Shown here: one piece after another, positions 21,245 through 60,103 of the stretch
How positions within the stretch are numbered: position 1 is the stretch's first letter
Layout of the letters: the number at the start of each line of letters is the position of its first letter
NCBI GenBank assembly: GCA_964492425.1
Contig: CAZBKB010000005.1
Location: forward strand, 12,468 to 76,467
Origin: an uncultured Gammaproteobacteria bacterium
GTDB taxonomy: Bacteria; Patescibacteriota; Microgenomatia; Curtissbacterales; GWA2-41-24
Reading direction: 5' to 3'
Length of the DNA: 64,000 nt
Position numbers and translations under genes: made by a program
The notes under the pieces: generated by a model
What the model was told of the DNA's origin: nothing
What the model saw: the letters and a program-made list of their open reading frames with translations, nothing else
Database searches by the model: none

Positions 21245-22140
21245 AATTATCGATTGTCATTGTCTCCTATAACGTTCAAGAGCTTTTAGATAAATGTTTA
21301 AAATCCATATATATCGCTTCTAAAAATATCGACCATGAAATTTACGTTGTAGATAACAATTCCCAAGATGGAACAAAAGAGCTGATTATAAATAAACATC
21401 CGCGAGTGCGGTTAATTGCAAATACTCACAATATTGGTTTTTCAAAAGCTAATAACCAGGCAATCAAGTTTGCAAAAGGGGAATATGTCCTTATCTTAAA
21501 TCCGGACACTGTGCTCATGCCCGACACTCTTGTCAAAATGCTCAAGTTTATGGATCAAAAGGATGCAAAAGTAGCCATAGCAACATGTAAGATAGAGCTA
21601 CCCAGTGGCTTGCTCGATCGTGATTGCAGACGCAGTTTCCCAACTCCCGCAAGAGCCCTTACACACTTCACAGGACTTTCTAAAATATTCAGGGGAACAA
21701 AAATATTTGATTCCTACTATATGGGTTATATCTCGATTAACCAAGAAACTGAGGTTGACGCTTGTGTTGGTGCTTTTATGTTTATTAGGCGCAAAATCTT
21801 AAAGGAAGTAGGCAACTTTGATGAAGACTATTTTTTCTATGGTGAAGATTTGGATCTTTGTTATCGTATACGTCAACATAATTACAAAATTTTCTATACT
21901 CCAATTACCAAAATTATTCACCACAAAGGTGCGTCATCCGGCATCAAAAAACACTCAGCCGAATTATCTAAAGCACCTGAAGAGTCTAAAAAGAGGGCAA
22001 TTGTTGAATCAACACATGCAATGGAACTTTTTTATAAAAAACATTACAAAGGTAAATACCCCCTCTTTATTACGTTTGCAGTGATAATAGCGATTGAGAT
22101 TGTTAAAAATATAAGGCTTTTCAGGCATAATTTTTTATGA
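21241..22140 (+). CDS. Glycosyltransferase family 2
   Basis: LSIVIVSYNVQELL...YVVDNNSQDGT and LNPDTVL (DxD-like) motifs. ATGA overlap with the upstream gene. Confidence 0.75.
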   Translation: MKLSIVIVSYNVQELLDKCLKSIYIASKNIDHEIYVVDNNSQDGTKELIINKHPRVRLIANTHNIGFSKANNQAIKFAKGEYVLILNPDTVLMPDTLVKMLKFMDQKDAKVAIATCKIELPSGLLDRDCRRSFPTPARALTHFTGLSKIFRGTKIFDSYYMGYISINQETEVDACVGAFMFIRRKILKEVGNFDEDYFFYGEDLDLCYRIRQHNYKIFYTPITKIIHHKGASSGIKKHSAELSKAPEESKKRAIVESTHAMELFYKKHYKGKYPLFITFAVIIAIEIVKNIRLFRHNFL

Positions 22141-23237
22141 AGATTGGAATAGATGCAAGATTTGTGGGGCCCCAAGGAACAGGGCTAGGTAAATACACCG
22201 AAAAGCTAATCGAAAATCTTGAAAAAATCGATACAAGAAATCAATTTTATATCTTCCTGCGCCAAAGCAACTGGTCATTTCTAAAGTTGACAGGGGGAAA
22301 CTTTACAAAAGTTTTAGCAGACGTCCCCTGGTACTCCCTGGAAGAACAGATAAAAATGGCAGGGATTTATAAATCAAAACATTTAGATCTTCTGCATGTC
22401 CCCCACTTCAATGTTCCTATCCTTTACAACCTGGTGTTTATAGTTACAATACATGATTTAATACATCATAAATTTTCGCAGGAATCAACAACAACCAAAA
22501 ATCCGTTTATTTTCAAAATAAAAAGGTTTGCCTACAAAAGGATAATCACCCATGCTGTGACAAAATCCAAAAAAATATTTGTTCCTTCAAATTATGTTAA
22601 AGAAGAAATCATCAATAACTTTAACCTCGACGCTAAAAAAATTGTTGTAACTTATGAAGCTGCAGAAGAAGAATACTCACAAGGAACAAAATCAAAAGCT
22701 TCAAAATCAAACCAGATAATTTATGTAGGCAATACCTATCCTCATAAAAACATAGCGAAACTTCTGGAAGCTCTAAACATTTTAAAATCAGAAATTAAAA
22801 ATTTAAAATTGATCATCGTCTGTCCCCGGGATGTCTTTACAAATAGGCTGGCAAAAGAAATTACAGATAAGGGTTTAACCCAAGAAGTTGAAATTCTTCC
22901 TTATCAAAATGTAGATCAGCTAGTTAGAATTTTTGCAAAATCCAAGGCTTATATTTTTCCATCTCTGGAAGAAGGTTTCGGTATACCAGGTCTAAACGCT
23001 ATGGCCGCAGGCCTGCCAGTTATTGCATCAAATATTCCAACCTTAAAAGAAATCTACGAAAATGCGGCTATGTACTTTAATCCAAACGACCCAAAAGACA
23101 TTGCCGAAAAAATAAACCAGGTCATCGGCAGTTCAGATATCAGAAAAAGTTTGATCTTTGAAGGTGGGAAACAGGTAAAAAAATATTCATGGCTAAAAAT
23201 GACCAAAGAAACCCTTGCGGTTTACCGCTCAGTCTAA
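22137..23237 (+). CDS. Glycosyltransferase family 4
   Basis: FPSLEEGFGIPGLNAMAAGLPVIASNIPTLKEIYENAAMYFNP. Confidence 0.8.
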   Translation: MKIGIDARFVGPQGTGLGKYTEKLIENLEKIDTRNQFYIFLRQSNWSFLKLTGGNFTKVLADVPWYSLEEQIKMAGIYKSKHLDLLHVPHFNVPILYNLVFIVTIHDLIHHKFSQESTTTKNPFIFKIKRFAYKRIITHAVTKSKKIFVPSNYVKEEIINNFNLDAKKIVVTYEAAEEEYSQGTKSKASKSNQIIYVGNTYPHKNIAKLLEALNILKSEIKNLKLIIVCPRDVFTNRLAKEITDKGLTQEVEILPYQNVDQLVRIFAKSKAYIFPSLEEGFGIPGLNAMAAGLPVIASNIPTLKEIYENAAMYFNPNDPKDIAEKINQVIGSSDIRKSLIFEGGKQVKKYSWLKMTKETLAVYRSV

Positions 23238-23295
23238 TTTAACAAACACAGCTTTTCAATAGAAGAATGTTAGGACGTATAATCCCAACCTCAAG

Positions 23296-23460
23296 AAGAC
23301 AGCCCTCACATATGATCCTTCGACTTCGTTCAGAGCGACTGATTTCAATCTATTAGGTTTTTACTTTAGGCTGTGGAGATAGGATAATCAACATACTACT
23401 CCGACCAAATTTTAATGTCAATAATCAAAAAGTTGCAGACTAATCTATAACTTGTATAAT
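23296..23460 (+). repeat. Diverged copy (R0) of the cassette-junction module, including an outward promoter
   Basis: gatccttcgacttcgttcagagcgactgatttcaatcta ... tttaggctgtggagataggataatcaacatactac ... ttttaatgtcaataatcaaaaagttgcag aligns segment by segment with the R1/R3 modules (gatgacccttcaatttcattcagggtt ... tttgggctatggagataaggtgtttccactatagcac ... ttttctgtcaataatctaaaagttgacac). Confidence 0.5.
23432..23460 (+). promoter_or_regulatory. Candidate sigma70-like promoter with extended -10 (TTGCAG-17-TGTTATAAT)
   Basis: ttgcag at 23432-23437, a 17-nt spacer, then tgt+tataat at 23452-23460. This lies 17 nt upstream of the small ORF at 23478. Confidence 0.4.
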
Positions 23461-23477
23461 CTTTCATTAGCCCCGAT

Positions 23478-23639
23478 ATGACAGAGAGACAACAGCAACT
23501 AGCACGAATTTCTGAAACAAGAACACTATCAACTACAGATAGATTATCGCTCGCCTATTTAGCAAGACAAAATTTTGAGGAGGCAATTGAGATTGCAGCT
23601 CAAACCAAGGGAGGACATTCAAACAATTCTTGCAAGTGA
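23478..23639 (+). CDS. Small hypothetical ORF (53 aa), possibly a frameshifted remnant
   Basis: ATG 23478 to TGA 23639. A +1 frame continues as ILASDDEIAKQAVAYFGRV*, suggesting a decayed gene. No homology recognised. Confidence 0.2.
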   Translation: MTERQQQLARISETRTLSTTDRLSLAYLARQNFEEAIEIAAQTKGGHSNNSCK

Positions 23640-23709
23640 CGACGAAATTGCAAAGCAAGCAGTGGCATATTTTGGCCGAGTGTGAAAACAAAACTATCGG
23701 TGTGCCTTT

Positions 23710-24132
23710 TTAATTTGTATCGAGTGGGTATTGGCTTAAGTGCTTAACAAAGGGAAGATTTACAGCCTTAACAAATTTAGAGTCTGCAGTAAAAAGATCA
23801 CAATTATTTTCTTGAGCTAAGATTGCATATGAAGCATCGTAAACTGTAACCTTATGCTCTTTGGCAAATTTTAAACATTTGGGGAAAAAATCTGGAGTGG
23901 GATTAAATATCTCTATCTTGAAATTCACGAAAAGATTCCAAGCTGCACTTATATCTTTGAGCGTTAATTCAGCTTTAGAAGAAAGAACATTTGCAAGTTC
24001 ATACAAAAGGATGTCGGGAGCGATAACTTTTTGTTCACCTGCTAAAAACTTGTCCAGTAGTATCAAAGATACATGTCTTGTATCTTCTTCCCTTAGCCAT
24101 TTATAAATAATTGAAGTATCGGCTACTACCAT
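23710..24132 (-). CDS. vapC: PIN-domain ribonuclease toxin VapC
   Basis: MVVADTSIIYKWL (conserved Asp5), internal acidic residues and C-terminal FTADSKF. 140 aa. It overlaps the upstream antitoxin gene by 7 nt. Confidence 0.75.
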   Translation of the reverse strand: MVVADTSIIYKWLREEDTRHVSLILLDKFLAGEQKVIAPDILLYELANVLSSKAELTLKDISAAWNLFVNFKIEIFNPTPDFFPKCLKFAKEHKVTVYDASYAILAQENNCDLFTADSKFVKAVNLPFVKHLSQYPLDTN

Positions 24133-24383
24133 TTTCCTTCATATCTCATCTCTCTTAATGATTGAACTATGTCAAAATCTTTTAGCTTTCTTTTCAATAC
24201 TCTTGCGACCTTACGACGATTTGCATGAATTTGATTAACTTGGGTTTGAGAGCGAGTTTTATCTTCGGTGCGTATTTTTTCCCTAACTACTGCAGATAAG
24301 CTTTGACGTTTTTTGGCAGCTTCAGCTTTCAGTCTCAAGTAATCCTCCTCAGAAATTCTTATATTAGTAGTAACATAATTCAT
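24126..24383 (-). CDS. vapB: Ribbon-helix-helix type antitoxin (VapB-like)
   Basis: 85 aa. N-terminal beta-strand TNIRISEEDYLRLKAEAAKK (RHH pattern). It lies directly upstream of the PIN gene and overlaps it. Confidence 0.55.
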   Translation of the reverse strand: MNYVTTNIRISEEDYLRLKAEAAKKRQSLSAVVREKIRTEDKTRSQTQVNQIHANRRKVARVLKRKLKDFDIVQSLREMRYEGKW

Positions 24384-24384
24384 A

Positions 24385-24417
24385 ATACAATTGTATCATT
24401 GTATTGATATTTGTCAA
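24385..24417 (-). promoter_or_regulatory. vapBC promoter with palindromic operator
   Basis: On the minus strand, TTGACA (plus 24412-24417) is followed by a 16-nt spacer and TACAAT (plus 24390-24395). A perfect 12-bp palindrome atacaattgtat (24385-24396) overlaps the -10 and abuts the vapB ATG at 24383, so the transcript would be leaderless. Confidence 0.45.
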
Positions 24418-24453
24418 TTCTTCAACTAACACATATAATCTCAGTAATCAATA

Positions 24454-24660
24454 ATGAAGACTACCCTAGTGCATGATGACCCTTCGATAGACTCAGGGCA
24501 GTTGCTCAATCTCGAAGGTCTTTTTATTCTGAGCGAAGCAAAAATCAGAGACGAAGTTCTCTATTTGGGCTATGGAGATAAGGTGTTTCCACTATAGCAC
24601 TTGCAACTTTTCTGTCAATGCTACAAATTGACATCAAACCTGATGATATGTAATATGTGA
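24454..24660 (+). repeat. Cassette-junction module R1: remnant of the GT 5' end plus a conserved 114-bp block plus promoter
   Basis: It begins atgaagactaccctagtgcatgatgac (M K T T L V H D D, matching MKIALVHDDF of the GT at 28348). Positions 24506-24619 are 114/114 identical to 27547-27660. Confidence 0.7.
24628..24656 (+). promoter_or_regulatory. Near-consensus sigma70-like promoter driving cassette gene 1 (TTGACA-17-TAATAT)
   Basis: ttgaca at 24628-24633, a 17-nt spacer, then taatat at 24651-24656. The ATG at 24665 is only 8 nt downstream of the -10, so the mRNA would be leaderless or have a very short leader. Confidence 0.5.
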
Positions 24661-24664
24661 AACG

Positions 24665-25507
24665 ATGGTTAGAGAAAGAGACTACAAGCCAATAGAAATT
24701 CCGCAAACTGAGCCTCTTGTTATTCTCAGAAACCAGAAATTTTTCCCATTTTCAAATCTTGAATTACCTGAGGAAACAATAGGACATTTTGATTTTGCAA
24801 GCCAGGAGTTTCAGCTTCAAGAAGAAGATGGCATCACTACGGGTAGATTTCTGTATCAAGATGTGATGAGCAATGGTAACACGGCAATGTGGAACTTCCC
24901 TTTTCTTGCCGAAAAGTATTACACCTTAGGCTCTACAGAAGACGATCTAAAGCAATATACTGAGACATATCCTGACTCACCGCATAGGAGAATAATGTTT
25001 AAAGTTGCATTTGACCTTCCGAGGCCTATGGATCCAGAAAGTGAGTTCCGTAAGACGACTAGAATCAGAGTTGAAAATGGACAAACTGGAAATGTGTTTT
25101 ACGCAGTAGAGGCAAGGGCACAAGGTGGATATGACCGAACAAGATCCCCAAAAGATGGGCACTACGCCATACTTTACGATAGCTTCTACTACAAAGGAGA
25201 ACAGTGGGATGATCGTTTGAATAAACATGCTCACTTAGATATTCCAGAAGAAAGATGGCCTGAGATACATCAGCAGGTAGCAGATTATGAAGAAGATAAC
25301 TCCAAGCCTTACCCACAAGAGCTTGCAGACGCACATCGAAGAGTAAGAGAAGAGGATGATAGACGCTCTTATTTAATGCCATTTCGCTTGTCTATCATCA
25401 CGAAACCAGAAGTGGCAAGAGGTATTGCACTAACCATTGAGCAGGTTCCTATGGGTTCTGTAGATCTAAGTGTCAACACACCAGACCAAGTGTTGCACGG
25501 GCACTAA
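24665..25507 (+). CDS. Hypothetical protein (280 aa), cassette gene 1, no recognisable domain
   Basis: Clean ORF with visibly higher G+C than the flanking genes. Acidic and aromatic-rich. Flanked by junction repeats R1 and R2. Confidence 0.5.
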   Translation: MVRERDYKPIEIPQTEPLVILRNQKFFPFSNLELPEETIGHFDFASQEFQLQEEDGITTGRFLYQDVMSNGNTAMWNFPFLAEKYYTLGSTEDDLKQYTETYPDSPHRRIMFKVAFDLPRPMDPESEFRKTTRIRVENGQTGNVFYAVEARAQGGYDRTRSPKDGHYAILYDSFYYKGEQWDDRLNKHAHLDIPEERWPEIHQQVADYEEDNSKPYPQELADAHRRVREEDDRRSYLMPFRLSIITKPEVARGIALTIEQVPMGSVDLSVNTPDQVLHGH

Positions 25508-25694
25508 TCAATTAACCTTAAAATCATCCTCAGCTAAAAAATTGTTAAAATCAGATAGTGAAAATTGCACTAGTACACGATGACTTCAATCTCGAAGGTT
25601 TTTTGTTTGGGGCGTGTTGATAAGACAATTCCATAGTACCACTTGCAAGTTTTAAGTCAAGAAATCAAAATGATGCAAGTTAAAATAGAAGTCT
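25508..25694 (+). repeat. Cassette-junction module R2 (3' repeat plus GT 5' remnant plus diverged 5' module)
   Basis: 25513-25589 matches 28303-28379 (native GT upstream plus first codons) at 75/77. It then carries caatctcgaaggtttttt... and a diverged ccatagtaccacttgcaagtttt. Confidence 0.65.
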
Positions 25695-26873
25695 ATGCCA
25701 GAAAGATTTGAAAGACGAGTCACAAGACCAGTTCAAGTAGGAGAGATAACTATTGGTGGGGATAACCCCATTGCTGTGCAATCAATGGTAACTAGGGAAA
25801 CTCAGGATATTCAAGGAGTAACGGAACAAATCAAACAACTCAACCTCGCAGGTGCTGAAATTGTTAGAGTAACGACACCTACAATTCAAGACGCAGAGTC
25901 GCTTGCTGAAATAAAAGTTGAACTTAAAAGACGATATAAAGATGTACCACTTGTTGCAGATGTTCATCATCAAGGCACAAACATTGCAGTAGAGGCTTCA
26001 AAACATGTTGAGAAAGTTCGCATAAACCCTGGGCTTTTTGTTTACCATAAGAGAACATCCCAGGAAGAATATACACACAATGAGATTGATGAACAAAGGA
26101 ATGAAATTGACTCTGCCTTATCTCCACTTATAAGTGCATGTAGAGAAAGAGGTGTTGCCCTGAGGGTTGGAGTAAATCATGGCAGCCTTGCAGAAAGACT
26201 TACTGTCATGTATGGCGACACACCAGAAGGAATGGTTCAGTCCGCAATGGAATATCTAAAAATATGCGAGGGCTATGGCTTCAAAGATGTAGTGGTTTCG
26301 TTAAAAGCTAGTAGAGCTCCCACCATGATTGCAGCCAATAGGCTAATGGTTGAGCGAATGGATGAGGAGAATATGAACTACCCCATCCATTTAGGTGTTA
26401 CAGAAGCTGGCAAAGACCAATACGCAAGGATTAAAAGCACTTACGGAATTGCAACTCTACTCTCAGAAGGTGTTGGGGATACTATTCGGGTTTCCTTAGC
26501 AGAAGACCCAGTTAAAGAGTTATCCGTTTGTTATGACATCCTTCAAGCAGGAGGCCTTAGGCGTACCAAATCTGAACCAATAGCTTGTCCAGGTTGTGGA
26601 AGAACTAAGTTTGACCTTGATACCGTCACTGATGACATATTTGGTGCAACTGAGCATTTAAAAGGTTTAAGTATTGCTGTGATGGGGTGCATTGTAAACG
26701 GGCCTGGGGAAATGGCAGATGCTGATTATGGCTATGTTGGTCTGGGTGGTGGCAAAATAGCTCTATACAGAGGAAAAGAAGTAATCAGGACTGTCCAGCA
26801 AGAAGAAGCAAGAGATTCTTTAATTGCACTTATAAAAGAAGATGGAAAATGGATAAACCCACCTTCTAATTAA
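25695..26873 (+). CDS. ispG: 4-hydroxy-3-methylbut-2-enyl diphosphate synthase IspG/GcpE
   Basis: Diagnostic IspG blocks: PIAVQSMV, AEIVRVT, VPLVADVHH, RINPG, VGVNHGSL, HLGVTEAG, LSEGVGDTIRVSL, and the [4Fe-4S] Cys ligands in ACPGCGR and GCIVNGPGE. Collinear with E. coli IspG. Confidence 0.85.
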   Translation: MPERFERRVTRPVQVGEITIGGDNPIAVQSMVTRETQDIQGVTEQIKQLNLAGAEIVRVTTPTIQDAESLAEIKVELKRRYKDVPLVADVHHQGTNIAVEASKHVEKVRINPGLFVYHKRTSQEEYTHNEIDEQRNEIDSALSPLISACRERGVALRVGVNHGSLAERLTVMYGDTPEGMVQSAMEYLKICEGYGFKDVVVSLKASRAPTMIAANRLMVERMDEENMNYPIHLGVTEAGKDQYARIKSTYGIATLLSEGVGDTIRVSLAEDPVKELSVCYDILQAGGLRRTKSEPIACPGCGRTKFDLDTVTDDIFGATEHLKGLSIAVMGCIVNGPGEMADADYGYVGLGGGKIALYRGKEVIRTVQQEEARDSLIALIKEDGKWINPPSN

Positions 26874-26905
26874 CCCTAAAATCTTCCTCAGCTAAAAATT
26901 GCGTG
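26871..26905 (+). repeat. Partial copy of the 3' junction repeat after ispG
   Basis: taaccctaaaatcttcctcagctaaaaattgcg matches the start of the 28303/25513 repeat (2 mismatches) and then diverges. Confidence 0.4.
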
Positions 26906-26918
26906 CTAAAATGCCTGA

Positions 26919-27239
26919 GTGGACACATCGTTTGTCAGAAGAAAAGTTGAAAGCGGAGAATATGACCTTTCAAGCCATGCTCACCGAGAAAGACAAGAAG
27001 AACAAATTACAGTAGCAGAAATAGAGCAGGCTCTCCTTACAGGTGATATAATTGAAAAGTATCCAAAAGACGAGAGAGGCGAAAGCTGTTTAGTTGCAGC
27101 AAAAACAGAAAATAAACCAATGCATATAGTGTGTGGAAAACGAGACAGCAGGTTATTAATAGTTACAGTCTACAGACCAAAACTGCCTACTTGGGAAAAT
27201 TATAAACAAAGAACAAAGGAGTTGAAAAGCCGTGTCTAA
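26919..27239 (+). CDS. DUF4258-like small protein (putative toxin-like partner)
   Basis: 106 aa. SSHAHRERQEEQITVAEIEQALLTGDIIEKYP...ESCLV.G...RPMHIVCG...IVTVYRP resembles the DUF4258 family. GTG start. It overlaps the downstream Zn-finger gene by 8 nt. Confidence 0.45.
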   Translation: MDTSFVRRKVESGEYDLSSHAHRERQEEQITVAEIEQALLTGDIIEKYPKDERGESCLVAAKTENKPMHIVCGKRDSRLLIVTVYRPKLPTWENYKQRTKELKSRV

Positions 27240-27471
27240 TTGTTACTTTTGCAAAGGAAAAACCGAAATTAGAAATGTGAACGTGGACTTCAGATGGAAG
27301 GATAAGCTTTTCGTCTTTAAAAGTGTTCCCGTAGAGGTTTGTATCCAATGCGGAGAAAAGTACTACAGTGCAGAAATTTCCAAAAAACTAGATGATTTTG
27401 TCAAAAAACAATCAGAAGCAAAGATCAGTCCACAAAATACCATCCAAGTCCCCGTTTTCAATTGGCAATAA
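27232..27471 (+). CDS. YgiT-type (MqsA N-terminal-like) zinc-finger protein
   Basis: 79 aa. CYFCKG ...(32)... CIQCGEKYY forms a four-Cys zinc ribbon, as in YgiT-type antitoxin-like proteins that commonly pair with DUF4258. Confidence 0.5.
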   Translation: MSNCYFCKGKTEIRNVNVDFRWKDKLFVFKSVPVEVCIQCGEKYYSAEISKKLDDFVKKQSEAKISPQNTIQVPVFNWQ

Positions 27472-27489
27472 ATCTGTTGCTATAATCTT

Positions 27490-27711
27490 CTCATGCGGAT
27501 TGCGTTAGTACACGATGACCCTTCAATTTCATTCAGGGTTATAAATTCAATCTCGAAGGTCTTTTTATTCTGAGCGAAGCAAAAATCAGAGACGAAGTTC
27601 TCTATTTGGGCTATGGAGATAAGGTGTTTCCACTATAGCACTTGCAACTTTTCTGTCAATAATCTAAAAGTTGACACGTAACTAATCCCAGGTATAGAAT
27701 CAGCCTGTTTT
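27490..27711 (+). repeat. Cassette-junction module R3 (GT 5' remnant plus conserved 114-bp block plus promoter)
   Basis: atgcggattgcgttagtacacgatgac (M R I A L V H D D). 27547-27660 is identical to 24506-24619. Confidence 0.7.
27671..27700 (+). promoter_or_regulatory. Sigma70-like promoter driving cassette gene 3 (TTGACA-18-TAGAAT)
   Basis: ttgaca at 27671-27676 and tagaat at 27695-27700. The ATG at 27712 follows with no Shine-Dalgarno sequence. Confidence 0.45.
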
Positions 27712-28305
27712 ATGACAGTAGAGCAACAGCACGAAATTAGAGGCTGGTTGGATGTTATTGCATCTATTCGACAAAAGAGAGCAGAGGCATCACGAGCTGC
27801 TTATTCCTTAAAAGATGTTAGCAGAAAAGATTACGATGGTTTAGATGTGGAGCGATTTGGAGATATTACCACAGGTTTATCAATGGTACTAAAACCAGAG
27901 GAAATAGATGAAGCCCCTCTTGAAATACAAATGGTCCTGAACGATTTAGGTTTAACCTCCGAAGACCAAATTCAAGCCCAGCTAATATTGAAACAATCAG
28001 ACGGCTCACGTGGTTATGATTTTGTACTTAAGCCTACTGAATTAGTAGGAGGGAGAATGGGAATACTTTTAGACAGCAATGGCAGTCACGCAGTTTTAGG
28101 TGGTCCAAGATCAAGGAGCTTTGATGGCATACATCAAACTGTTGAAACATATGAAGGTAAATCAGCAGAAATCTACGAGAACTATAGATTTGGTATGGGA
28201 GATGCTCAAAATCCAAACTTAGTTGAAATTCTATATTCGTGTGTTAAATGGTTCGCAACCTTAGCAGAAAATAGACGAAAGACTCCACCAGAACCTATTA
28301 GTTAA
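27712..28305 (+). CDS. Hypothetical protein (197 aa), cassette gene 3, no recognisable domain
   Basis: Clean ORF with higher G+C than the host genes. Flanked by R3 and the native junction copy. Confidence 0.45.
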   Translation: MTVEQQHEIRGWLDVIASIRQKRAEASRAAYSLKDVSRKDYDGLDVERFGDITTGLSMVLKPEEIDEAPLEIQMVLNDLGLTSEDQIQAQLILKQSDGSRGYDFVLKPTELVGGRMGILLDSNGSHAVLGGPRSRSFDGIHQTVETYEGKSAEIYENYRFGMGDAQNPNLVEILYSCVKWFATLAENRRKTPPEPIS

Positions 28306-28400
28306 CCCTAAAATCATCCTCAGCTAAAAAATTGTTAAAATCAGATAGTGAAAATTGCACTAGTACATGATGACTTCACTCAGGCTGGCGGGGCAGAAAG
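28303..28400 (+). repeat. Native target copy: upstream region plus first about 17 codons of the GT4 gene, shared by all junction modules
   Basis: taaccctaaaatcatcctcagctaaaaaattgttaaaatcagataGTGaaaattgcactagtacatgatgacttcactcaggctggcggggcag. Copies or remnants lie at 25513, 26871, 24454 and 27500. Confidence 0.6.
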
Positions 28401-29472
28401 TCTGTTTGCCACAATTGCTGCCCTTTATCCGAATGCGCCGATTTACACTTCCCTAGTCAATTGGCGCAAACTGCCCGCATCAATCGATAGAAACAGGATC
28501 CGACCCTCATTTATGCAAAAAATCCCATTTGCCGCAAGCTTTTTTAAACTCCTTTTGCCGCTTTACCCGCTAGCCTTTGAAAGTTTCGACTTTGACAACT
28601 ACGACCTTGTCATTTCTTCGACAACTCGTTTTGCCAAATCGATAATCACAAAACCCAAAACTTGTCATATTTCTTATTTAAATAGCACACCTAGATTTTT
28701 GTGGGAAGAGGACAAAAAAAATGTCTATTTGCCAAAAATTTTGCTGTTTCTCTTAAGCCCCTTTTTTCGTTGGTTAAAACGCTGGGACTTATCATCAGCC
28801 CAAAGAGTTGATTATTTTCTTGCCAATTCCCAAAACGTAAGTCAAAAAATCCTCAAAATATACAGACGAAAAAATAAAGTTATTTATCCTTTTGCCGACA
28901 CCACTTTCTTTACTCCCGATAGAATCCATAATTGGAAACTTAAAAGCAAGAATTATTACCTTATTGTTACCAGACTTGTTAAATGGAAAAAAATAGACAT
29001 CGCAATTGAGGCGGTGAATGATATAGGTGCAAATTTAATAATTATCGGTGACGGGCCTGACAAGGGGAGGCTGGAGGGAATAGCGGTCAGGGACCAGCGG
29101 TCAGGAACCAGAGATCAGGTTACTTTTATCGGCAAGATAACACGAGAGGAGCTAAAAAGCTGTTACCAGAACTGCAGGGCGCTTATTGTGACACAAGAAG
29201 AGGATTTTGGTATTGCAACTGTCGAGGCTCAAGCTTGCGGTACTCCGGTTATAGCTTATGGGAAAGGTGGCACAGTCGAGATCATCACAGACAAAAAAAC
29301 GGGTGTATTCTTTAGTTCTCAAACCATGTCTTCGCTAAAAGATGCAATTTCAACGTCTTCTAGGTTAAAATATGATAAGTTAGCTATAAGACACAATGCT
29401 CTTCGTTTCACAAAAACTAACTTTGAAAAAATATTTAAGGAAATCGTAAGACAATATGCCAAATCAGCCTGA
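28348..29472 (+). CDS. Glycosyltransferase family 4 (target gene of the cassette array)
   Basis: GTG start with no Shine-Dalgarno sequence. The N-terminus is MKIALVHDDFTQAGGAESL. GT4 C-terminal block VTQEEDFGIATVEAQACGTPVIAYGKGGTVEIITDKKTGVFF. Confidence 0.8.
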   Translation: MKIALVHDDFTQAGGAESLFATIAALYPNAPIYTSLVNWRKLPASIDRNRIRPSFMQKIPFAASFFKLLLPLYPLAFESFDFDNYDLVISSTTRFAKSIITKPKTCHISYLNSTPRFLWEEDKKNVYLPKILLFLLSPFFRWLKRWDLSSAQRVDYFLANSQNVSQKILKIYRRKNKVIYPFADTTFFTPDRIHNWKLKSKNYYLIVTRLVKWKKIDIAIEAVNDIGANLIIIGDGPDKGRLEGIAVRDQRSGTRDQVTFIGKITREELKSCYQNCRALIVTQEEDFGIATVEAQACGTPVIAYGKGGTVEIITDKKTGVFFSSQTMSSLKDAISTSSRLKYDKLAIRHNALRFTKTNFEKIFKEIVRQYAKSA

Positions 29473-30556
29473 TCTCAAAATCGCTCTTTTTTGCGGTGGT
29501 AGTGGTACCCGTATGTGGCCTATGAGTCGCAAAAATTTACCTAAACAGTTTCAACCACTTATTGAAAACACGTCTACTTTCGAAATGATGATCACGCGTC
29601 TCACTAAAAAGTATCCGCACTCAAGCATATTCCCAGTAACAACCAGAGATAATGTTCAATGGATAGTAAAACTCGCCCCTGAAATTCCGCTGGAAAATAT
29701 CATTATTGAACCTGAGGTGAGAGATACAGCAGCAGCGGTTGGACTATCAGCCGCAGTTCTTGATAAAAAATTTGACAACCCTAATGTTCTCGGCCTTTGG
29801 AGTGATCACGTTGTAAGAAACGAAGAAGAATTTATAAGGGCTATTGAGCTTGCAAACGAAACAGCAAACGAGATGGACAAGTTTATAGAAATTGGTGTGC
29901 GCCCCACATTCCCCAGTGTCGCATTAGGATATTTAAAAGTCGGCAAGATGATTAAAAGATCAAACGGTATGGGCATTTTTGAATTTGTCACCCAAATAGA
30001 AAAGCCTGCTTACAAAGATGCTAAAAAATTTGTGGAATCTTGGGAATACCTTTGGCATATTGGCTATGCTCTTTGGTCAGCCAAAAAGATGCTTGGCTAT
30101 TATGAAAGATTTTTCAAGGAAGGCTGGGAACCTCTCATAAAAATACAAAAAGCCTGGGGAACACCTGATCAGGAGAAAATATTACAGAGAGAATATATCA
30201 ATATACCCAAAAACTCTATCGACTTTGCTGTTAATTCCCACCTAACAGGGGAGGATCAAATTGTTATTTCTACAGATCTCGGCTGGCGTGATGTTGGCAC
30301 TTGGAATGAGTTAAAAGATGAAATGGCGGCTAACCCTCGCGACAATATTATTCAGGGTGATGTAATAGATTTGGATCTGAAAGACTGCCTTGTTTACTCA
30401 TCACACAAACAAAAAATTATCGCGGCAATTGGTCTTGAGGGGCTGATAATTGTAGATACAGAGGACGCACTCTTGATCTGCCCAAAAGATAGGACTCAAG
30501 ATGTTAAGCAAATTATTGACAAACTCAAAGAGAGTAAAAGAGAAAGTCACCTTTAA
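29456..30556 (+). CDS. manC: Mannose-1-phosphate guanylyltransferase (NTP_transferase family)
   Basis: N-terminal KIALFCGGSGTRMWPMSRKNLPKQF (GGxGTRLWPLS signature). About 360 aa. It overlaps the upstream GT by 17 nt. Confidence 0.7.
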   Translation: MPNQPDLKIALFCGGSGTRMWPMSRKNLPKQFQPLIENTSTFEMMITRLTKKYPHSSIFPVTTRDNVQWIVKLAPEIPLENIIIEPEVRDTAAAVGLSAAVLDKKFDNPNVLGLWSDHVVRNEEEFIRAIELANETANEMDKFIEIGVRPTFPSVALGYLKVGKMIKRSNGMGIFEFVTQIEKPAYKDAKKFVESWEYLWHIGYALWSAKKMLGYYERFFKEGWEPLIKIQKAWGTPDQEKILQREYINIPKNSIDFAVNSHLTGEDQIVISTDLGWRDVGTWNELKDEMAANPRDNIIQGDVIDLDLKDCLVYSSHKQKIIAAIGLEGLIIVDTEDALLICPKDRTQDVKQIIDKLKESKRESHL

Positions 30557-30565
30557 TTCCACTGC

Positions 30566-31216
30566 ATGTTTTACGACTTCACAAAAAGAATAATTGATAT
30601 TGTTGGAAGTATAATTGCACTTTTGATCGTCTCCCCTGTATTTGTTACTTTCGCAGTACTGGTTAAAATCACATCGACTGGCCCTATTTTTTACACACCA
30701 GTTAGAGTAGGCAAAGACGGAAGGCCTTTTAAAATGCTGAAATTTAGAAGTATGCAAATGTATAAAATCGGCGGAGTTTTAGTCCATGCTCAGAAATATC
30801 TTGACACAAACCCAAAGCTTAAAAAGGAGTATCAAAAAAATAGTTTCAAACTTACAAATGATCCGCGAGTTACGCCGATTGGGAAAATACTACGTAGGTT
30901 TTCAATAGATGAATTACCACAACTTATTAATATACTTACAGGAGACATGTCGCTGGTTGGCCCACGAGCATATCAGCAGGATGAGCTGCTTCATCAGCAA
31001 AAAGTTTATCCCAATACCGCAAAGTTCGTTAAAATCATTCTGAATGCCCGCCCGGGGGCATCCGGTCCCTGGCAGGTTTCCGGTAGATCATTTATTAACT
31101 TTGACACTAGAGTTCAAATGGATGCAACTTATGTTAAAAGAAGATCCACTCTCTACGATTTTTGGATAATCATCAGGACGCCGATTGCCATGATAACCGG
31201 AACAGGTGCCGTTTAA
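30566..31216 (+). CDS. Initiating phosphoglycosyl transferase (Bac_transf family, PglC/WbaP C-domain-like)
   Basis: IIDIVGSIIALLIVSPVF (re-entrant helix), RPFKMLKFRSM, and DELPQLINILTGDMSLVGPRA (conserved catalytic DE and PRP region). Confidence 0.75.
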   Translation: MFYDFTKRIIDIVGSIIALLIVSPVFVTFAVLVKITSTGPIFYTPVRVGKDGRPFKMLKFRSMQMYKIGGVLVHAQKYLDTNPKLKKEYQKNSFKLTNDPRVTPIGKILRRFSIDELPQLINILTGDMSLVGPRAYQQDELLHQQKVYPNTAKFVKIILNARPGASGPWQVSGRSFINFDTRVQMDATYVKRRSTLYDFWIIIRTPIAMITGTGAV

Positions 31217-33022
31217 ATGAAAAAGTATAAGAGAATAATTCTAATATTAATCTTATTATTTTTCTTTTTTGGGGTATTTACCGCATTTAGTTTGTTTAAT
31301 GCTTACAAATCAGCAAAACACGTCTCTGCCGCTCTTAATTCTCAAGACCTTGATGCTGCTAAAAATTCTATAAAAAAGGCAAGAAATGAGCTCAAGATGG
31401 CCAATACGGCACTTATCGTCTTTACCCCGCTCAGATTCGTACCTCTGGTTGGTTGGTATATAGCAGATGTCCAGCGTGGTACATATGCCGCGGTTGCCAC
31501 TCTCGATGCGGCACAAGTTATGGCAGAAGCAATTACACCTTACGCGGACATTCTAGGCCTTAGGGGTCAAGGCACTTTTTTAGGTGGCACAGCCCAGGAG
31601 CGTGTTGCCAGTATCATTGAGACACTTTCCAAAGTTTCACCGCAGCTTAATGAAATTGGAGACAATTTAAAAGAAGCAAAGGATCAAATTAGTAAAATCC
31701 AAGCATGGAAATATCCGAATTTTCTACCTGGCAGACCAAAAGATAAAATAGAATCTGCCCAAACCGCCATTATTCAGTTTGAAACTTTAATAGTAGATGC
31801 CAAGCCTTTCATAGAGGTCTTGCCTGAAATAATGGGCCAAGGTAGTGAGAAAACTTATCTTGTACTGTTGCAAAACGACAAGGAGTTACGGCCAACAGGA
31901 GGCTTTATTACAGCATATGCAATACTGAAGGTTAACAAAGGTGATGTAAAAATAGAGCTTTCTGAAGATATTTATAAACTCGACGATACCCTAACAAAAA
32001 GAGTTGCGGCACCAGACCATATAAAAAAATACTTAGAGGTGCAGTCACTTAACTTGCGCGACTCAAATATATCACCAGATTATTTGTCATCCATCAAACT
32101 TTTTGAAGACCTTTACCAATACAGTACTGCGAAAAAGCAATATGAAGGTATTATCGCTTTGAATACAAACTTTGTCCTTAAAATGATAAAAGCGCTTGGG
32201 CCAATTGAGATTGATGGCACTAAATATACTGCGGAGGTAATAGACGAATGCGCCTGTCCGCAAATTATTTATCAGCTAGAACAATACACTGGGCAGCCTA
32301 CGCCTTTCCAAAGGGAAGACAGAAAGGGTATCATTGGCGTTCTTATGCAGCAGCTTCTGGCAAAAACTTTTGAAGCACCCCAGTCTACTTGGCCAGATAT
32401 TTTAGGAGCGGTTGTATCTTCACTTCAGGAAAAAGACCTGCTACTTTATTTTGAAAATATCTCAACCCAAGAGGCAGTTGAAAAAGTTAATTTTGCTGGC
32501 CGCATTTATCAATACGACAGTGATTTTTTACACATCAACGAAAGTAATCTTGGTGGAGCAAAATCGAACATTTACATAAAGGAAAAAGTTAAACAGGAAA
32601 TAAAAAGAGATAAAGATATTACTATAAAGAAAGTGACTATCGAATATAAATATCCTCGCAAAATGGACAACTGTAGCCTGGAGCGCAAAGGTGGTCTTTG
32701 TCTTGCCGGAATTTACAGAGACTGGATTCGTCTTTATGTTCCCAAGGGTTCAAAGATCATCGCAGCGAATGGAAGCGAAGCTCCCCTAGAAACCTATGAC
32801 GAGCTAGGCAAAACTGTGTTTGAAGGTTTTTTAACTGTGCGTCCCGAAGGTACTGCCAAATTTGAAATAGAATATTCACTGCCGATTGAGTTCTCAAAGG
32901 AGTATAAACTTCTCGTGCAAAAACAACCAGGGGCTCCGGCACATGAATACGAAATAAATGCTTTTGGCAAAAGAATATCATTCCCCCTTAATACTGATAA
33001 AGAATTTATTGCAAAAATTTAA
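31217..33022 (+). CDS. Membrane-anchored extracytoplasmic protein (601 aa), possibly DUF4012 family
   Basis: Single N-terminal TM followed by a large soluble domain. The size, architecture and position next to a phosphoglycosyl transferase resemble DUF4012 proteins. The family call is from memory and is not motif-verified. Confidence 0.35.
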   Translation: MKKYKRIILILILLFFFFGVFTAFSLFNAYKSAKHVSAALNSQDLDAAKNSIKKARNELKMANTALIVFTPLRFVPLVGWYIADVQRGTYAAVATLDAAQVMAEAITPYADILGLRGQGTFLGGTAQERVASIIETLSKVSPQLNEIGDNLKEAKDQISKIQAWKYPNFLPGRPKDKIESAQTAIIQFETLIVDAKPFIEVLPEIMGQGSEKTYLVLLQNDKELRPTGGFITAYAILKVNKGDVKIELSEDIYKLDDTLTKRVAAPDHIKKYLEVQSLNLRDSNISPDYLSSIKLFEDLYQYSTAKKQYEGIIALNTNFVLKMIKALGPIEIDGTKYTAEVIDECACPQIIYQLEQYTGQPTPFQREDRKGIIGVLMQQLLAKTFEAPQSTWPDILGAVVSSLQEKDLLLYFENISTQEAVEKVNFAGRIYQYDSDFLHINESNLGGAKSNIYIKEKVKQEIKRDKDITIKKVTIEYKYPRKMDNCSLERKGGLCLAGIYRDWIRLYVPKGSKIIAANGSEAPLETYDELGKTVFEGFLTVRPEGTAKFEIEYSLPIEFSKEYKLLVQKQPGAPAHEYEINAFGKRISFPLNTDKEFIAKI

Positions 33023-33028
33023 CATTTT

Positions 33029-33661
33029 ATGAATTTTAAATCAGAGGGAATTGTTCTCAGTAGAAAAAGTTTTCAGGAGGCAGATAGACTGGTTACCTTT
33101 TATACTAGAGATTACGGCAAAATTACCTGTATCGCCAAAGGTGTTAAAAGACCAAAATCAAGAAAAGCTGGACACTTGGAGCTTGCAACTTACTGTACTA
33201 TTTTTGTGGTCAAAGGCAAGAACATGGATATATTAACTGAAGTTGAAACTAAAAAAGCCTTTGGTCTGGAAAATCTTCCCAGCCAAAAAACGAATGAGAT
33301 ATATCATTTACTGGAACTTATTGACAACTTAACACCCACAAATCAAAAGAACAAAGAAGTCTTTGACTTGCTTGTAAGCTTTTTAAAAGTTATAAAAGAA
33401 AACAACAATTACGAGCTTCTTCTTGTTGCATTTAAAATCAAACTCTTGTCTATGCTTGGCTTTTTCTCCAGTAAAAATTTAAAAGATTCAAAATCTAAAG
33501 ATTTGCTGCAAAACTTTGAAACAAAAGACTTACAAACACTTCATAAAAAATTTAAAACAGGCTATAAATATTTGAAACTTTTAGCGTTTCTTGATAGCAT
33601 TATTGAAAAGATAACAGAGCGGAAACTTAAAACAAGTCGCTTTATACATGCCCAAATCTAA
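33029..33661 (+). CDS. recO: DNA repair protein RecO (short form)
   Basis: N-terminal OB-fold signature SEGIVLSRKSFQEADRLVTFYTRDYGKITCIAKGVKR... then HLLELID. 210 aa. Confidence 0.6.
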   Translation: MNFKSEGIVLSRKSFQEADRLVTFYTRDYGKITCIAKGVKRPKSRKAGHLELATYCTIFVVKGKNMDILTEVETKKAFGLENLPSQKTNEIYHLLELIDNLTPTNQKNKEVFDLLVSFLKVIKENNNYELLLVAFKIKLLSMLGFFSSKNLKDSKSKDLLQNFETKDLQTLHKKFKTGYKYLKLLAFLDSIIEKITERKLKTSRFIHAQI

Positions 33662-34487
33662 AAGAAATCTTTACATTCTTGCTGCAGCGGCATTTGTTTT
33701 TATTTTTGCAGCAATATATTTTTTATTTGTTTTTCAAAAATCTCCAAAATTATCAAAAGTTGATAGATCAGCCTTTGAAGTAAAATCAATAATAGACATA
33801 GAAGTTACAAAAAGGCCTTTTGTAACACTTACCCCTACAGCACCTGGTGCAGAAATCATTATCTCCATAGAAAATATGAGCGAGTTTGATAATATTGAAT
33901 ACGAACTTACATACTTAGCAGATAATCCTCAAATTCCAGGAGAAAAGATTCAAAGAGGCTCAACTGGAATTGATGTTGACACAAAATCGCCCAAATATAA
34001 GAAATCGATGCTGCTGGGAACTGCCTCAAGAGGGGTATCCAATCCAGACAGGGGGATAGAGGAGGGTAAATTAACACTTCATATGTTCAAAGGTAATACT
34101 GAATACCAATCAGAAACTCCGTGGTATTTATTCGAGATAGGCCTTACTACAACCGAAATCTCAACACCTGATGGCAATTTAAGTATAAAAACCCCTAAAC
34201 TAACTAAAGATTATTTTGCGATTGTGTCAGATACGGTTGGTCTTCCTCCAGAAGGGGACATTGATAAGGGTAAAGCAGAATTACCAATTTATGGGGTCTT
34301 TTCAACTACTCCTAAATTCACCCAAAAAGCAGATCTTACACTTAGGGTAAAAGGTCAAAATTCAAAACTTTATATCTATAACAATCAAAATAACACTTGG
34401 GGTAATATTGACTCAACTCAAGCGGGAGAGAACATCAAAGCCAAAATTGAAATTTTCTCAACATATGTGGTAGTCTCCCAAAAATGA
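33648..34487 (+). CDS. Membrane-anchored hypothetical protein (signal-anchor plus beta-rich ectodomain)
   Basis: N-terminal hydrophobic anchor (ILAAAAFVFIFAAIYFLFVF). No recognisable domain. Confidence 0.4.
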   Translation: MPKSKRNLYILAAAAFVFIFAAIYFLFVFQKSPKLSKVDRSAFEVKSIIDIEVTKRPFVTLTPTAPGAEIIISIENMSEFDNIEYELTYLADNPQIPGEKIQRGSTGIDVDTKSPKYKKSMLLGTASRGVSNPDRGIEEGKLTLHMFKGNTEYQSETPWYLFEIGLTTTEISTPDGNLSIKTPKLTKDYFAIVSDTVGLPPEGDIDKGKAELPIYGVFSTTPKFTQKADLTLRVKGQNSKLYIYNNQNNTWGNIDSTQAGENIKAKIEIFSTYVVVSQK

Positions 34488-35788: not shown

Positions 35789-35871
35789 TTCTCTAGGTTC
35801 TAATTAAGGGACGGGTTGACTAACAGAATGTATCTTATCATACTGGTACCAGCACAAAAGCTAAAAAACTT

Positions 35872-60101: not shown

Positions 60102-60103
60102 AT

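Follow-up and report, generated by a model that had tools for sequence, protein, structure and literature searches.

The gene ispG, encoding HMBPP synthase, raises a question of residence: it lies among small repeat-bounded units, and it could be a recent arrival with a special purpose or an old occupant of the chromosome. The window (the whole stretch of 64,000 nucleotides analysed) belongs to Candidatus Curtissbacteria (Microgenomates, CPR), a placement obtained from an FtsZ search. The reading favoured here, held at a probability of roughly 0.6, is that a working ispG is a long-fixed occupant of a single unit within a modular array, which stands at a recombination hotspot before a glycosyltransferase (GT) gene, and that the gene has been inherited vertically under selection.

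The gene and the array that holds it

Identity of IspG was assessed by profile search. The protein matched Pfam PF04551 (GcpE; 401 bits, model positions 1-342/343), TIGR00612 (440.5 bits, cutoff 280.25, model positions 1-357/357), which places it within that equivalog, and NF001540 (404.5 bits, cutoff 345); the full-length match also includes PF26540. Residues C298, C301, C332 and E339, which we take to be the [4Fe-4S] ligands in the C-terminal domain, as in IspG of E. coli and Aquifex, sit in CPGCGRT...MGCIVNGPGE, and the three Cys columns and the Glu column showed no variation in an alignment of 16 sequences or among the six orthologues examined. The initial annotation had named a genuine IspG/GcpE with its Cys ligands; PF04551, TIGR00612 and the invariant Cys and Glu residues bear this out and, judged from its sequence, ispG is a genuine, intact isoprenoid-pathway gene.

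The array comprises five units flanked by two GT genes; at the boundary of each unit stands a copy of the 27 nt with which the downstream GT gene begins (Table 1). The GT start, GTGAAAATTGCACTAGTACAyGATGAC, is present at 25558-25584 and 28348-28374, the former (in junction J2) being identical to the real start at 26/27 positions; further copies were found at 24454-24480 (J1, reading MKTTLVHDD) and 27493-27519 (J4, reading MRIALVHDD), with a degenerate one near 23293. A 27-nt boundary motif, TTAACCnnAnAATCnTnCTCAGCTAAA, comes after ORF280, ispG and ORF197 and has exactly three copies in 64 kb (25512, 26870 and 28302; 0 expected), and a shared 5' module stands ahead of four units. The modules of J1 and J4 contain the two copies of a 114-nt exact repeat (24506-24619 and 27547-27660). 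J2 consists of the motif (25512-25538), the GT copy and a short 5' module (25585-25694). Junction lengths were uneven, with a short form in which GATGAC is joined to TTCAATCTCGAAGG and a long form with ~25 extra nt of decayed GT codons; because the junctions are not uniform, messy or homologous recombination fits them better than a precise site-specific reaction.

Table 1. Array features and anchor genes, in window coordinates
Feature	Position	Strand	Basis or remark
GT4-family glycosyltransferase, left anchor	22137..23237	+	Pfam Glycos_transf_1, 109 bits; L007 orthologue 66% aa
Junction J0: degenerate GT 5'-end copy, then diverged 5' module	23293..23477	+	sequence reading, junction alignment
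Unit 0 cargo: 53-aa ORF (+), VapC (PIN)/VapB (RHH) on minus strand	23478..24383	.	PIN, 54.6 bits
Junction J1: promoter and GT 5' fragment, decayed GT codons, 5' module	24384..24664	+	sequence, junction alignment
Unit 1 cargo: ORF280	24665..25507	+	no family match
Junction J2: left edge of ispG unit	25508..25694	+	repeat search, junction alignment
ispG (HMBPP synthase)	25695..26873	+	392 aa, intact; profile matches and orthologues at the same locus in L006/L007
Boundary motif copy overlapping ispG stop codon	26870..26896	+	motif count; likewise follows ispG in L006/L007
DUF4258 toxin-like and MqsA-like zinc-finger antitoxin-like genes, ispG unit	26919..27471	+	DUF4258, 77.5 bits
Junction J4: promoter and GT 5' fragment, decayed GT codons, 5' module	27472..27711	+	sequence, alignment, promoter scan
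Unit 3 cargo: ORF197	27712..28305	+	no family match; three independent assemblies of same population
Boundary motif (28302-28328) and true GT gene start (28348-28374)	28302..28374	+	repeat search
GT4-family glycosyltransferase, right anchor; 5' end is the repeated target	28348..29472	+	Pfam; synteny with L006/L007

Promoter-like sites (10-11/12 consensus matches, and consensus matches only) lie upstream of ORF280 (24628-24656) and ORF197 (27671-27700). J1 has, besides the former, a plus-strand site at 24411-24439 and a minus-strand site running from 24618 to 24591; J0 bears a minus-strand site running from 23421 to 23393. The promoter scan listed none for ispG itself. As a promoter (TTAACC-17-TAAAAA), the boundary motif fell short of the criteria of the scan and is at most a possible one. 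Readings as a terminator or attC site were dropped on RNA folding, in which junction hairpins and the 3' motif folded no better than shuffles. An Rfam scan of 22800-28800 (E<=1) gave no match, and a scan for the boundary motif across GTDB representative genomes gave 0 matches. The window contains no tRNA gene, so the array is not a tRNA-targeted island.

The ispG unit spans the GT-start copies at 25558-25584 and 27493-27519. The earlier description of a single-gene cassette between junction repeats thus stands as to the repeats, which are real, and falls as to the single gene, since the DUF4258/MqsA-like pair behind ispG shares its unit. The repeats support placing ispG in a cassette-like unit whose boundaries match those of the neighbouring ORFan and toxin-antitoxin units. 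Both gene pairs, PIN/RHH and DUF4258/MqsA-like, consist of adjacent small genes with domains matching type II toxin-antitoxin systems, the antitoxin matches being weak (RHH_1 of VapB in Pfam; MqsA_antitoxin at only 19 bits, below cutoff). ORF280 and ORF197 had no match in Pfam, NCBIfam, PADLOC or PHROGs; ORF280 has six homologues among 1.84 billion representatives, and an exact look-up returned no identical record. The possibility that ORF280, ORF197 and unit 0 are decayed copies of ispG was tried with tblastx and blastn, which found nothing. No recombinase domain was detected in the cargo proteins (IspG, toxin-antitoxin pairs and ORFans) with Pfam, NCBIfam, PADLOC or PHROGs.

Collapse of strain variants at the repeats could in principle have produced the array as an assembly chimera; contigs of other assemblies do end at or near array repeats, and the portion left of 25187 is present only in the window assembly. 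Seven contig records from four sources, however, reproduce 25187-36873 at 99.98-100%, and the order ORF280(3')-ispG-TA-ORF197-GT was seen on single contigs of independent assemblies. This agreement means that 25187-36873 is not an assembly artefact, and a chimera is hardly credible; the array to the left of 25187 is a one-assembly result.

Age and distribution of ispG

The initial annotation had given ispG a foreign G+C. Its G+C is 41.7%, where genes average 37.1% (sd 3.2), and ranks fifth highest, with FtsZ (44.5%), FtsA (44.0%) and GlyRS (42.5%) among the genes above it. The excess is confined to codon positions 1 and 2 (GC1 56.7%, GC2 39.9%); GC3, at 28.5%, is under the host average (31.8%, sd 4.2), and the choice of synonymous codons resembles that of the host (log-likelihood z = +0.43). 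Neither compositional mark of a recently acquired genomic island, in silent-site G+C or in codon usage, is found in ispG, and the claim of foreign composition fails.

Two related genomes (L006 and L007) carry IspG orthologues (85% and 84% aa identity) in the corresponding syntenic position and with matching flanks, among the same neighbours as in the window: a GT and, downstream of the right-anchor GT in the window, ManC, a Bac_transf polyprenyl-phosphate sugar transferase, DUF4012 and RecO. Identity of these neighbours to the window proteins is 47-82%, against 84-85% for IspG. The left-anchor GT4 has its orthologue directly upstream of ispG in L007, where the junction ahead of ispG is 73% identical to J2, and the toxin-antitoxin pair behind ispG recurs in L006 (80% and 89% aa); unit 0 cargo, ORF280 and ORF197 are all missing from both genomes. 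Among the three ispG sequences pS is ~0.74 (saturated), dN ~0.10 and dN/dS ~0.03. Saturated synonymous sites together with this ratio indicate an old, selected resident, and purifying selection of such strength indicates that the protein is in use. ispG is a long-standing, host-adapted occupant of its slot and not a recent foreign arrival.

In a fourth relative the gene is absent. This genome, L097, is syntenic with L006 in a six-frame comparison (membrane protein 56-60% aa, toxin-antitoxin pair 75-79%) and retains the boundary motif and the toxin-antitoxin pair at a site without ispG; a search of this site for an ispG remnant gave, as best local alignment, a decayed GT-start copy below the shuffle threshold. 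L095 and L096 have other cargo ahead of the same motif, L095 also with a GT fragment and 5' module, and direct repeats of the target sequence flank units in the window array, on both sides of ispG in L007, and in L095. Recurrence at the hotspot, proposed earlier as a check, was thus found in part: ispG recurs in L006 and L007, is absent in L097, and L095 and L096 show other cargo at the motif. IspG formed only three close clusters, at >=74% identity, against more than 120 FtsZ clusters at >=79%, whose named matches were all Curtissbacteria but one, labelled Patescibacteria group. Being absent at the L097 site and rare among Curtissbacteria, ispG is evidently an accessory gene in this group; L097 could also have lost the gene by deletion, in which case its empty site would not be ancestral.

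A neighbour-joining tree placed the window, L006 and L007 sequences in one clade (100% bootstrap) within a clade of 17 low-G+C sequences (94%) whose sister is an Armatimonadota/Dehalococcoidia/Gemmatimonadota group; the IspG of Moraniibacteria grouped with Bacteroidota. Where the initial annotation had looked to phylogeny for a donor lineage, the nearest relatives formed a small, low-G+C clade of metagenomic sequences whose gene contexts are CPR-like, and gene context and G+C suggest a CPR origin for the 17-member clade. Against GTDB representatives, the best among the matches listed were 61-62% identical and came from distant phyla only.

These data bear on two opposed accounts. That ispG is a recent, compositionally foreign, horizontally moving cassette kept for a non-isoprenoid purpose draws on its sharing boundary repeats with the neighbouring cassettes, on its rarity in Curtissbacteria and absence at the L097 site, and on the sparseness of MEP genes in CPR (PMC6107057). 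Host-like GC3 and codon use, a locus common to three genomes between which synonymous divergence has reached saturation (dN/dS 0.03), and a diverged, older-looking junction (61-66% identical to J1/J4, when the junctions of ORF280 and ORF197 share 114 identical nt) all tell against it, as does the outcome of the sequence searches run, in which no ispG copy with these flanks was seen at another site or in another host. Its 'recent' and 'foreign G+C' parts are largely refuted and the account as a whole is very improbable; the movement ascribed to ispG in the initial annotation does not hold on a recent timescale.

The converse account, in which ispG never moved but is a native gene upstream of the GT operon around which cassettes were inserted, is unlikely. 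In its favour, ispG is adjoined by the 5' core CAACTTTTCTGTCAAT and by the 3' motif in the window, L006 and L007, the ispG unit looks the oldest, and L006 keeps the order ispG-TA-GT; the shared flanks could be regulatory flanks of ispG itself, copied onto later cassettes from its promoter region and from the stretch between ispG and the GT. In L007, however, a decayed GT start, ATGAAAATTGCATCAGTTAATGACGAC (MKIASVNDD), lies to the left of ispG and a second copy to its right, the signature of inserted units, and the boundary motif that follows ispG in L006 and L007 occurs without it in L095, L096 and L097, which argues that it is not an ispG-specific flank. Most Curtissbacteria, moreover, lack IspG, and sister lineages house the gene elsewhere, in an ispH/uppS cluster.

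Pathway context

No dedicated MEP gene besides ispG was found among the 56 window ORFs scanned with Pfam or among precomputed Pfam hits on identical contigs, which agrees with the initial annotation; the sole IspD-family match is a secondary one (35 bits) to a Mur-ligase fusion protein, in its NTP_transferase domain. That annotation had considered an isolated ispG unusual. MEP genes are scattered in most bacteria, so that the absence of others within 64 kb is normal; in E. coli, for example, ispG adjoins hisS. The enzyme probably performs the ordinary conversion of MEcPP to HMBPP in the supply of isoprenoid precursors. This supply would feed undecaprenyl-type carrier lipids, provided that the genome encodes IspH and the upstream MEP enzymes at other loci; candidate users nearby are glycan genes (Bac_transf, GTs, Wzy-like) and peptidoglycan genes (MraY, MurG).

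A mevalonate-route genome without the rest of the MEP pathway could instead retain IspG as an orphan, to process MEcPP or HMBPP of a host cell or for a redox or stress function. Published work (PMC6107057) credits most Microgenomates with mevalonate-pathway genes and describes MEP genes as sparse in CPR, and the strong purifying selection indicates a protein that is used. Among the best 120 of 6030 IspH matches there was no CPR-type sequence with the multi-source pattern expected of the (Rifle) datasets holding this genome, a figure that describes those 120 matches and not a genome inventory. Candidates P0251 and P0257 belong to other lineages; P0263 and P0264 are on 1.3-1.5 kb contigs from other runs. 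The orphan role is improbable, given also that relatives of the same clade keep ispG beside ispH and uppS (in L010 and L102 it adjoins uppS, isopentenyl phosphate kinase, ispH and a prenyl diphosphate synthase) and that we know of no IspG function independent of MEcPP. We give little credence, too, to a joint reading in which the array is an undescribed, integrase-less cassette-capture hotspot of CPR, with small units bearing promoter-like sites that insert in the first GT codons and restore the GT start, and in which a mevalonate-using Microgenomate keeps one captured unit, such an orphan terminal-MEP enzyme, e.g. for host-cell MEcPP/HMBPP.

In a group in which the MEP pathway is patchy, a gene of central metabolism is here a slot-borne accessory, and the locus offers a place to study gain, movement and loss of isoprenoid genes in CPR. 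It also raises the question of whether IspG and IspH coexist with a mevalonate-type route, isopentenyl phosphate kinase adjoining ispH in the relatives.

Proposed mechanism and comparison with known systems

Under the favoured reading of a long-fixed ispG in a modular array, each unit would comprise a GT 5'-end fragment, the shared 5' module with its promoter-like sites, and cargo, and a complete unit would end with the 27-nt boundary motif, a fresh GT upstream region and the first nine codons; each insertion would regenerate the GT start. ispG would have entered, or been relocated into, the slot before the lineages of the window, L006 and L007 split, followed by vertical inheritance, strong purifying selection and fully host-like codon usage, and the ORF280, ORF197 and VapBC units would be later, window-specific additions. 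Insertion may have proceeded by site-specific recombination with a recombinase acting in trans, or by homologous Campbell-type insertion through ~30-70 nt of GT-start homology. A profile search of the window found no recombinase within the array or adjoining it; the one tyrosine recombinase lies 30 kb off at 57472-58488 and stays far under the cutoffs for integron integrases (56.5 bits against TIGR02249, cutoff 265).

As a gene, ispG is ordinary, with a full-length TIGR00612 match, PF04551 and PF26540, the ligand residues, purifying selection and clade relatives that adjoin ispH and uppS; the exotic claims of foreign composition and recent mobility fail. Its setting is not: unlike ordinary ispG it belongs to a variable array within a locus for glycan synthesis, where repeats bound its unit, in a group mostly without the gene and in a radiation in which MEP genes are reported to be sparse.

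Sedentary chromosomal integron arrays resemble this one in their tandem small units, mostly of one or two genes in one orientation, in their richness in toxin-antitoxin pairs and ORFans, and in the conserved motif that ends each unit. Integron cassettes are generally promoterless and expressed from Pc, whereas the units here have their own promoter-like sites (consensus matches only), with copies of a host gene's 5' end at their boundaries; there is no adjacent intI or attI, and the boundary motif, unlike attC, folds at 0 kcal/mol and belongs to none of the inverted repeats listed by the repeat search. CIME-like integrase-less elements accrete in tandem at an att site in a gene end, and some elements, such as SXT in prfC, rebuild the 5' end of the gene they target. 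The array shares with these the target-end direct repeats around each unit, the tandem piling up, and insertions that each bring a new promoter and 5' coding end and leave the target gene intact; it differs in units of just 0.9-1.9 kb, in junction positions that vary by ~25 nt, and in units devoid of an integrase of their own, excisionase or transfer genes. In the minimal mobile elements of Neisseria, genes are exchanged between conserved genes through flank homology. Varied cargo between the same conserved flanks, the lack of a dedicated mobility gene and the plausibility of exchange by homologous recombination are common to both, but the present units accumulate in tandem instead of displacing one another, and each has a duplicated target fragment. 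Searches of the literature on integrons in Patescibacteria and on Curtissbacteria found nothing relevant, and the comparisons suggest that the array matches no system considered here or found in the literature searched. Its unusual feature is that the 5' end of the host gene is regenerated at every unit; this, together with array motifs that are nearly invariant although synonymous sites are saturated, points to a recombination or regulatory system of CPR.

Identity, composition and ancestry of ispG

The gene was identified as ispG (IspG/GcpE) by a Pfam GcpE match of 401 bits covering the entire model and by the NCBIfam equivalog TIGR00612 (440.5 bits; cutoff 280). The CPGCGRT...MGCIVNGPGE blocks, with Cys298, Cys301, Cys332 and Glu339, show no variation across 16 aligned homologues or in a codon-by-codon comparison of six IspG orthologues. 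Judged by its sequence, the gene is intact and under strong constraint, and the identification made in the initial annotation holds. Its G+C content (41.7 %; gene mean 37.1 %, sd 3.2) ranks fifth, with the FtsZ, FtsA and GlyRS genes above it. The excess sits at codon positions 1 and 2 (GC1 56.7 %, GC2 39.9 %); GC3 (28.5 %) lies under the host mean (31.8 %) and synonymous codon choice is host-typical (z=+0.43, leave-one-out likelihood), which contradicts the foreign G+C ascribed to the gene. The raised G+C is attributable to the amino-acid make-up of a conserved enzyme.

The donor lineage was sought, as had been proposed, in a bootstrapped NJ tree of 59 IspG sequences (387 columns). The window protein and those of L006 and L007, two metagenome contigs from relatives, form one clade (100 % bootstrap), nested in a 17-member clade (94 %) of low-G+C (35–40 %) metagenomic sequences; the sister of the latter comprises Armatimonadota, one Dehalococcoidia and one Gemmatimonadota, followed by Cyanobacteria. 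IspG of Moraniibacteria (Parcubacteria, CPR) is distant and groups with Bacteroidota. From gene context and G+C we infer that the 17-member clade is CPR. On two of its contigs, L010 and L102, ispG stands beside uppS, an isopentenyl phosphate kinase (IPK) gene (NF040647, 185 bits), ispH (TIGR00216, 212 bits) and a short-chain prenyl diphosphate synthase gene, contexts indicating that the window ispG belongs to the type with which its presumed CPR relatives make isoprenoids. Unlike in L010 and L102, the gene is located at a glycosyltransferase (GT) hotspot in the window lineage.

Anatomy of the array and its possible assembly

The array was defined by reading positions 23200–28400 and by using a repeat finder. 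Five units lie between two GT4-family genes, and the 27 nt that open the downstream GT gene (to ...CTAGTACAyGATGAC, encoding M/V-K-I-A-L-V-H-D-D) recur at each junction. A shared 5′ module (TTCAATCTCGAAGG ... CACTTGCAACTTTTCTGTCAAT) stands to the right of every GT fragment; those preceding ORF280 and ORF197 are identical over 114 nt. In three units the cargo is followed on its right by the 27-nt boundary motif TTAACCyTAAAATCwTCCTCAGCTAAA, which was matched three times in 64 kb (0 expected). The junction repeats reported initially were thus recovered; the single-gene cassette was not, because a DUF4258/MqsA-like pair belongs to the cargo of the ispG unit. At 25187–36873 the window agrees to 99.98–100 % with several independent assemblies that sample the same groundwater population, so the ispG part of the array is not an assembly artefact; left of 25187 the window is the sole assembly.

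Features of the ispG array (window positions)
Feature	Position	Strand	Remark
ispG (IspG/GcpE)	25695–26873	+	392 aa, full length
left GT4-family glycosyltransferase	22137–23237
right (downstream) GT4-family glycosyltransferase	28348–29472
degenerate GT-start copy	near 23293
GT-start copy	24454–24480
GT-start copy	25558–25584		26/27 identical to true start
GT-start copy	27493–27519
true GT start	28348–28374
5′ core copy	23393–23421
5′ module/core, ORF280 unit	24506–24619		identical to ORF197 copy
5′ core copy	25633–25660
5′ module/core, ORF197 unit	27547–27660		identical to ORF280 copy
boundary motif	at 25512
boundary motif	at 26870
boundary motif	at 28302
cargo: 53-aa ORF + VapBC
cargo: ORF280	24665–25507
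cargo: ispG + DUF4258/MqsA-like pair
cargo: ORF197

ORF280 matched no family in Pfam, NCBIfam, PADLOC or PHROGs, and only six homologues (35–61 % identity, three of them fragments) were found among 1.84 billion representative proteins; its codon use is host-like and it appears to be a real, very rare protein family. The right GT gene is called as 374 aa (GTG start) or 319 aa, depending on the pipeline; the repeated 27-nt fragment fits the 374-aa call. No obvious Shine–Dalgarno sequence precedes this GTG or the starts of ispG, ORF280 and ORF197.

Direct repeats of the GT start flank every unit, and at its right end each unit rebuilds the sequence upstream of the GT gene together with the first nine codons. 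This arrangement suggests that a circular unit would integrate by recombination within the GT-start sequence, through either a recombinase acting in trans or homologous recombination; a precise site-specific reaction fits poorly with junctions that differ by ∼25 nt of decayed GT codons. An integron was rejected: no intI lies nearby, the sole tyrosine recombinase being 30 kb off and far under the integron-integrase cutoff, the 3′ motif showed no secondary structure on folding, and some units own promoter-like sites. The ispG gene itself is ordinary; it sits in a variant of hotspot and tandem-accretion architectures that are already known.

All four window copies of the 5′ core contain a strong minus-strand promoter-like site (TTGACA-16-TATAGT with an upstream TG, 11/12 matches, in the two identical cores; weaker in the other two). 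It points away from the cargo toward the GT-start fragment; an antisense or small RNA could be transcribed from it. When the 126-nt minus-strand stretch was folded, the result was not significant (z=−1.15). At the end of the dcw region, a restriction-modification/defence cluster (57472–63823) starts with a XerA-like tyrosine recombinase (106 bits, under all curated cutoffs), followed by an EcoRII-C-domain endonuclease with a C5 cytosine methylase, a DUF2779/Cas4-like protein and a Mrr-type endonuclease. The window contains no tRNA genes.

Residence and accessory status of ispG

The two closest IspG proteins (85 and 84 % identity) are encoded on L006 and L007, from other samples, at the same syntenic position. 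The order on L007 is GT4, ispG, toxin–antitoxin pair, GT, ManC, Bac_transf, DUF4012, RecO, GlyRS and GlmS-like; L006 shares the downstream order and has different upstream genes. Flanking orthologues are 47–82 % identical to those of the window. Among the three ispG genes pS is ∼0.74 (synonymous sites saturated), dN ∼0.10 and dN/dS ∼0.03, whereas ispG has the same 5′ core (AACTTTTCTGTCAAT) and 3′ motif at its sides in each genome; near-invariance of such short non-coding elements while silent sites are saturated argues for functional flanks. Neither L006 nor L007 has a counterpart of ORF280, ORF197 or VapBC. The ispG junction is 61–66 % identical to the ORF280 and ORF197 junctions, which have 114 identical nt in common, and 73 % identical to the ispG junction of L007. 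On this evidence the ORFan units look younger than the ispG unit, having apparently been added around it.

On L007, a decayed GT start (ATGAAAATTGCATCAGTTAATGACGAC, M-K-I-A-S-V-N-D-D) left of ispG is fused to the end of the upstream GT4 gene, and a second copy stands right of ispG before a Phd/ParE pair, with the true GT start next; ispG is thus bracketed like the other units. Scanning metagenome contigs for the boundary motif gave five records only. L095 has a GT fragment, the 5′ module, a two-gene cargo (73 and 199 aa, the latter matching only a PHROG of unknown function) and then the motif; in L096 a different small ORF precedes it. L097 is syntenic with L006 (membrane protein 56–60 %, DUF4258/MqsA pair 75–79 % amino-acid identity in a six-frame comparison) and retains the motif at the boundary, but contains neither ispG nor the 277-aa gene. 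Recurrence of ispG at the hotspot extends to L006 and L007 and not to L097. The "empty" site of L097 (1182–1340, minus strand) seems to have kept a decayed copy of the GT start (AATCGCAATACTATACGTTGA-TTCAA) as well as a piece (AGTTGCTCA) similar to J1, the junction preceding ORF280 (24384–24664); its reading as an emptied unit is only suggestive, since the alignment scored less than the 95 % level given by shuffles.

A small Cys-x-x-Cys ORF (MVRRKSTCGLCKPHKKWK...) occurs ∼90–110 nt 3′ of the boundary motif in L095 (∼390–330, minus strand) and L096 (511–663), and further downstream in L006 (5285–5410), where it separates the toxin–antitoxin pair from the GT gene; the window lacks it.

Samples came from Rifle aquifer groundwater (PRJNA268031). 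Searching with the window FtsZ gave >120 clusters (79–94 % identity), the named ones all Candidatus Curtissbacteria (Microgenomates group, Patescibacteria/CPR) but one ("Patescibacteria group bacterium"); the host was identified from this search as Curtissbacteria. IspG gave three clusters at at least 74 % identity, then ∼14 at 66–73 %, against the >120 FtsZ clusters at at least 79 % in comparable data, which indicates that most Curtissbacteria lack ispG. Such rarity is consistent with the findings of Hoshino and Gaucher 2018 (PMC6107057), according to whom genes of the mevalonate pathway occur in most Microgenomates and those of the MEP pathway are sparse in CPR.

The horizontally moving cassette of the initial annotation stands as to its cassette-like and accessory character; recent mobility is countered by the shared slot in three genomes and the saturated synonymous sites. 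The initial observation is largely borne out, except for the foreign G+C and the single-gene unit, and the interpretation built on it is supported in part: the gene is cassette-like and accessory, yet old, host-adapted and long vertically inherited.

Pathway context

ispG lies in a 55-kb cell-envelope region with GT2 and GT4 genes, PMT_2-type membrane proteins, a Wzy-like protein, a flippase-like protein and Bac_transf, followed by the dcw cluster (MraY, MurG, FtsW). Pathways of this region use polyprenyl-phosphate carriers; IspG would make HMBPP for IPP/DMAPP, and hence carrier lipid. The gene scan bore out that the 64-kb window contains no other MEP gene. MEP genes are scattered in E. coli, and a lone one in such a window is normal for bacteria. 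A search with the CPR-type IspH of L010 gave a small clade similar in size to that of IspG; among the matches listed it has ∼15 clusters, none with the multi-source pattern expected of the Rifle datasets. Possibly, the window lineage has ispG without the usual ispH. A non-isoprenoid role for the ispG product is speculative, neither supported nor refuted; interest in ispG would rise if the genome lacked the other MEP genes.

In the sister IspG lineages, ispH adjoins an archaeal-type IPK gene (L102, 2121–4510; L100, 2388–4727; L010, 12641–15065), so a mevalonate-type kinase clusters with terminal MEP enzymes. IspH of L102 and L100 (531 aa) has an N-terminal extension of ∼215 aa. L100 (1213–4727) and L101 (1168–4682) share the order sigma factor, small ORF, IPK, ispH and uppS with L010 (9367–15065), but ispG and the first uppS are missing after the sigma factor gene; this lineage, too, seems to gain and lose ispG. 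Inside the dcw cluster of the window, positions 42708–44705 encode a 665-aa protein whose N-terminal sugar-nucleotidyl transferase domain (NTP_transferase, 74 bits; secondary IspD match, 35 bits) is fused to an entire Mur ligase comprising catalytic, middle and C-terminal domains.
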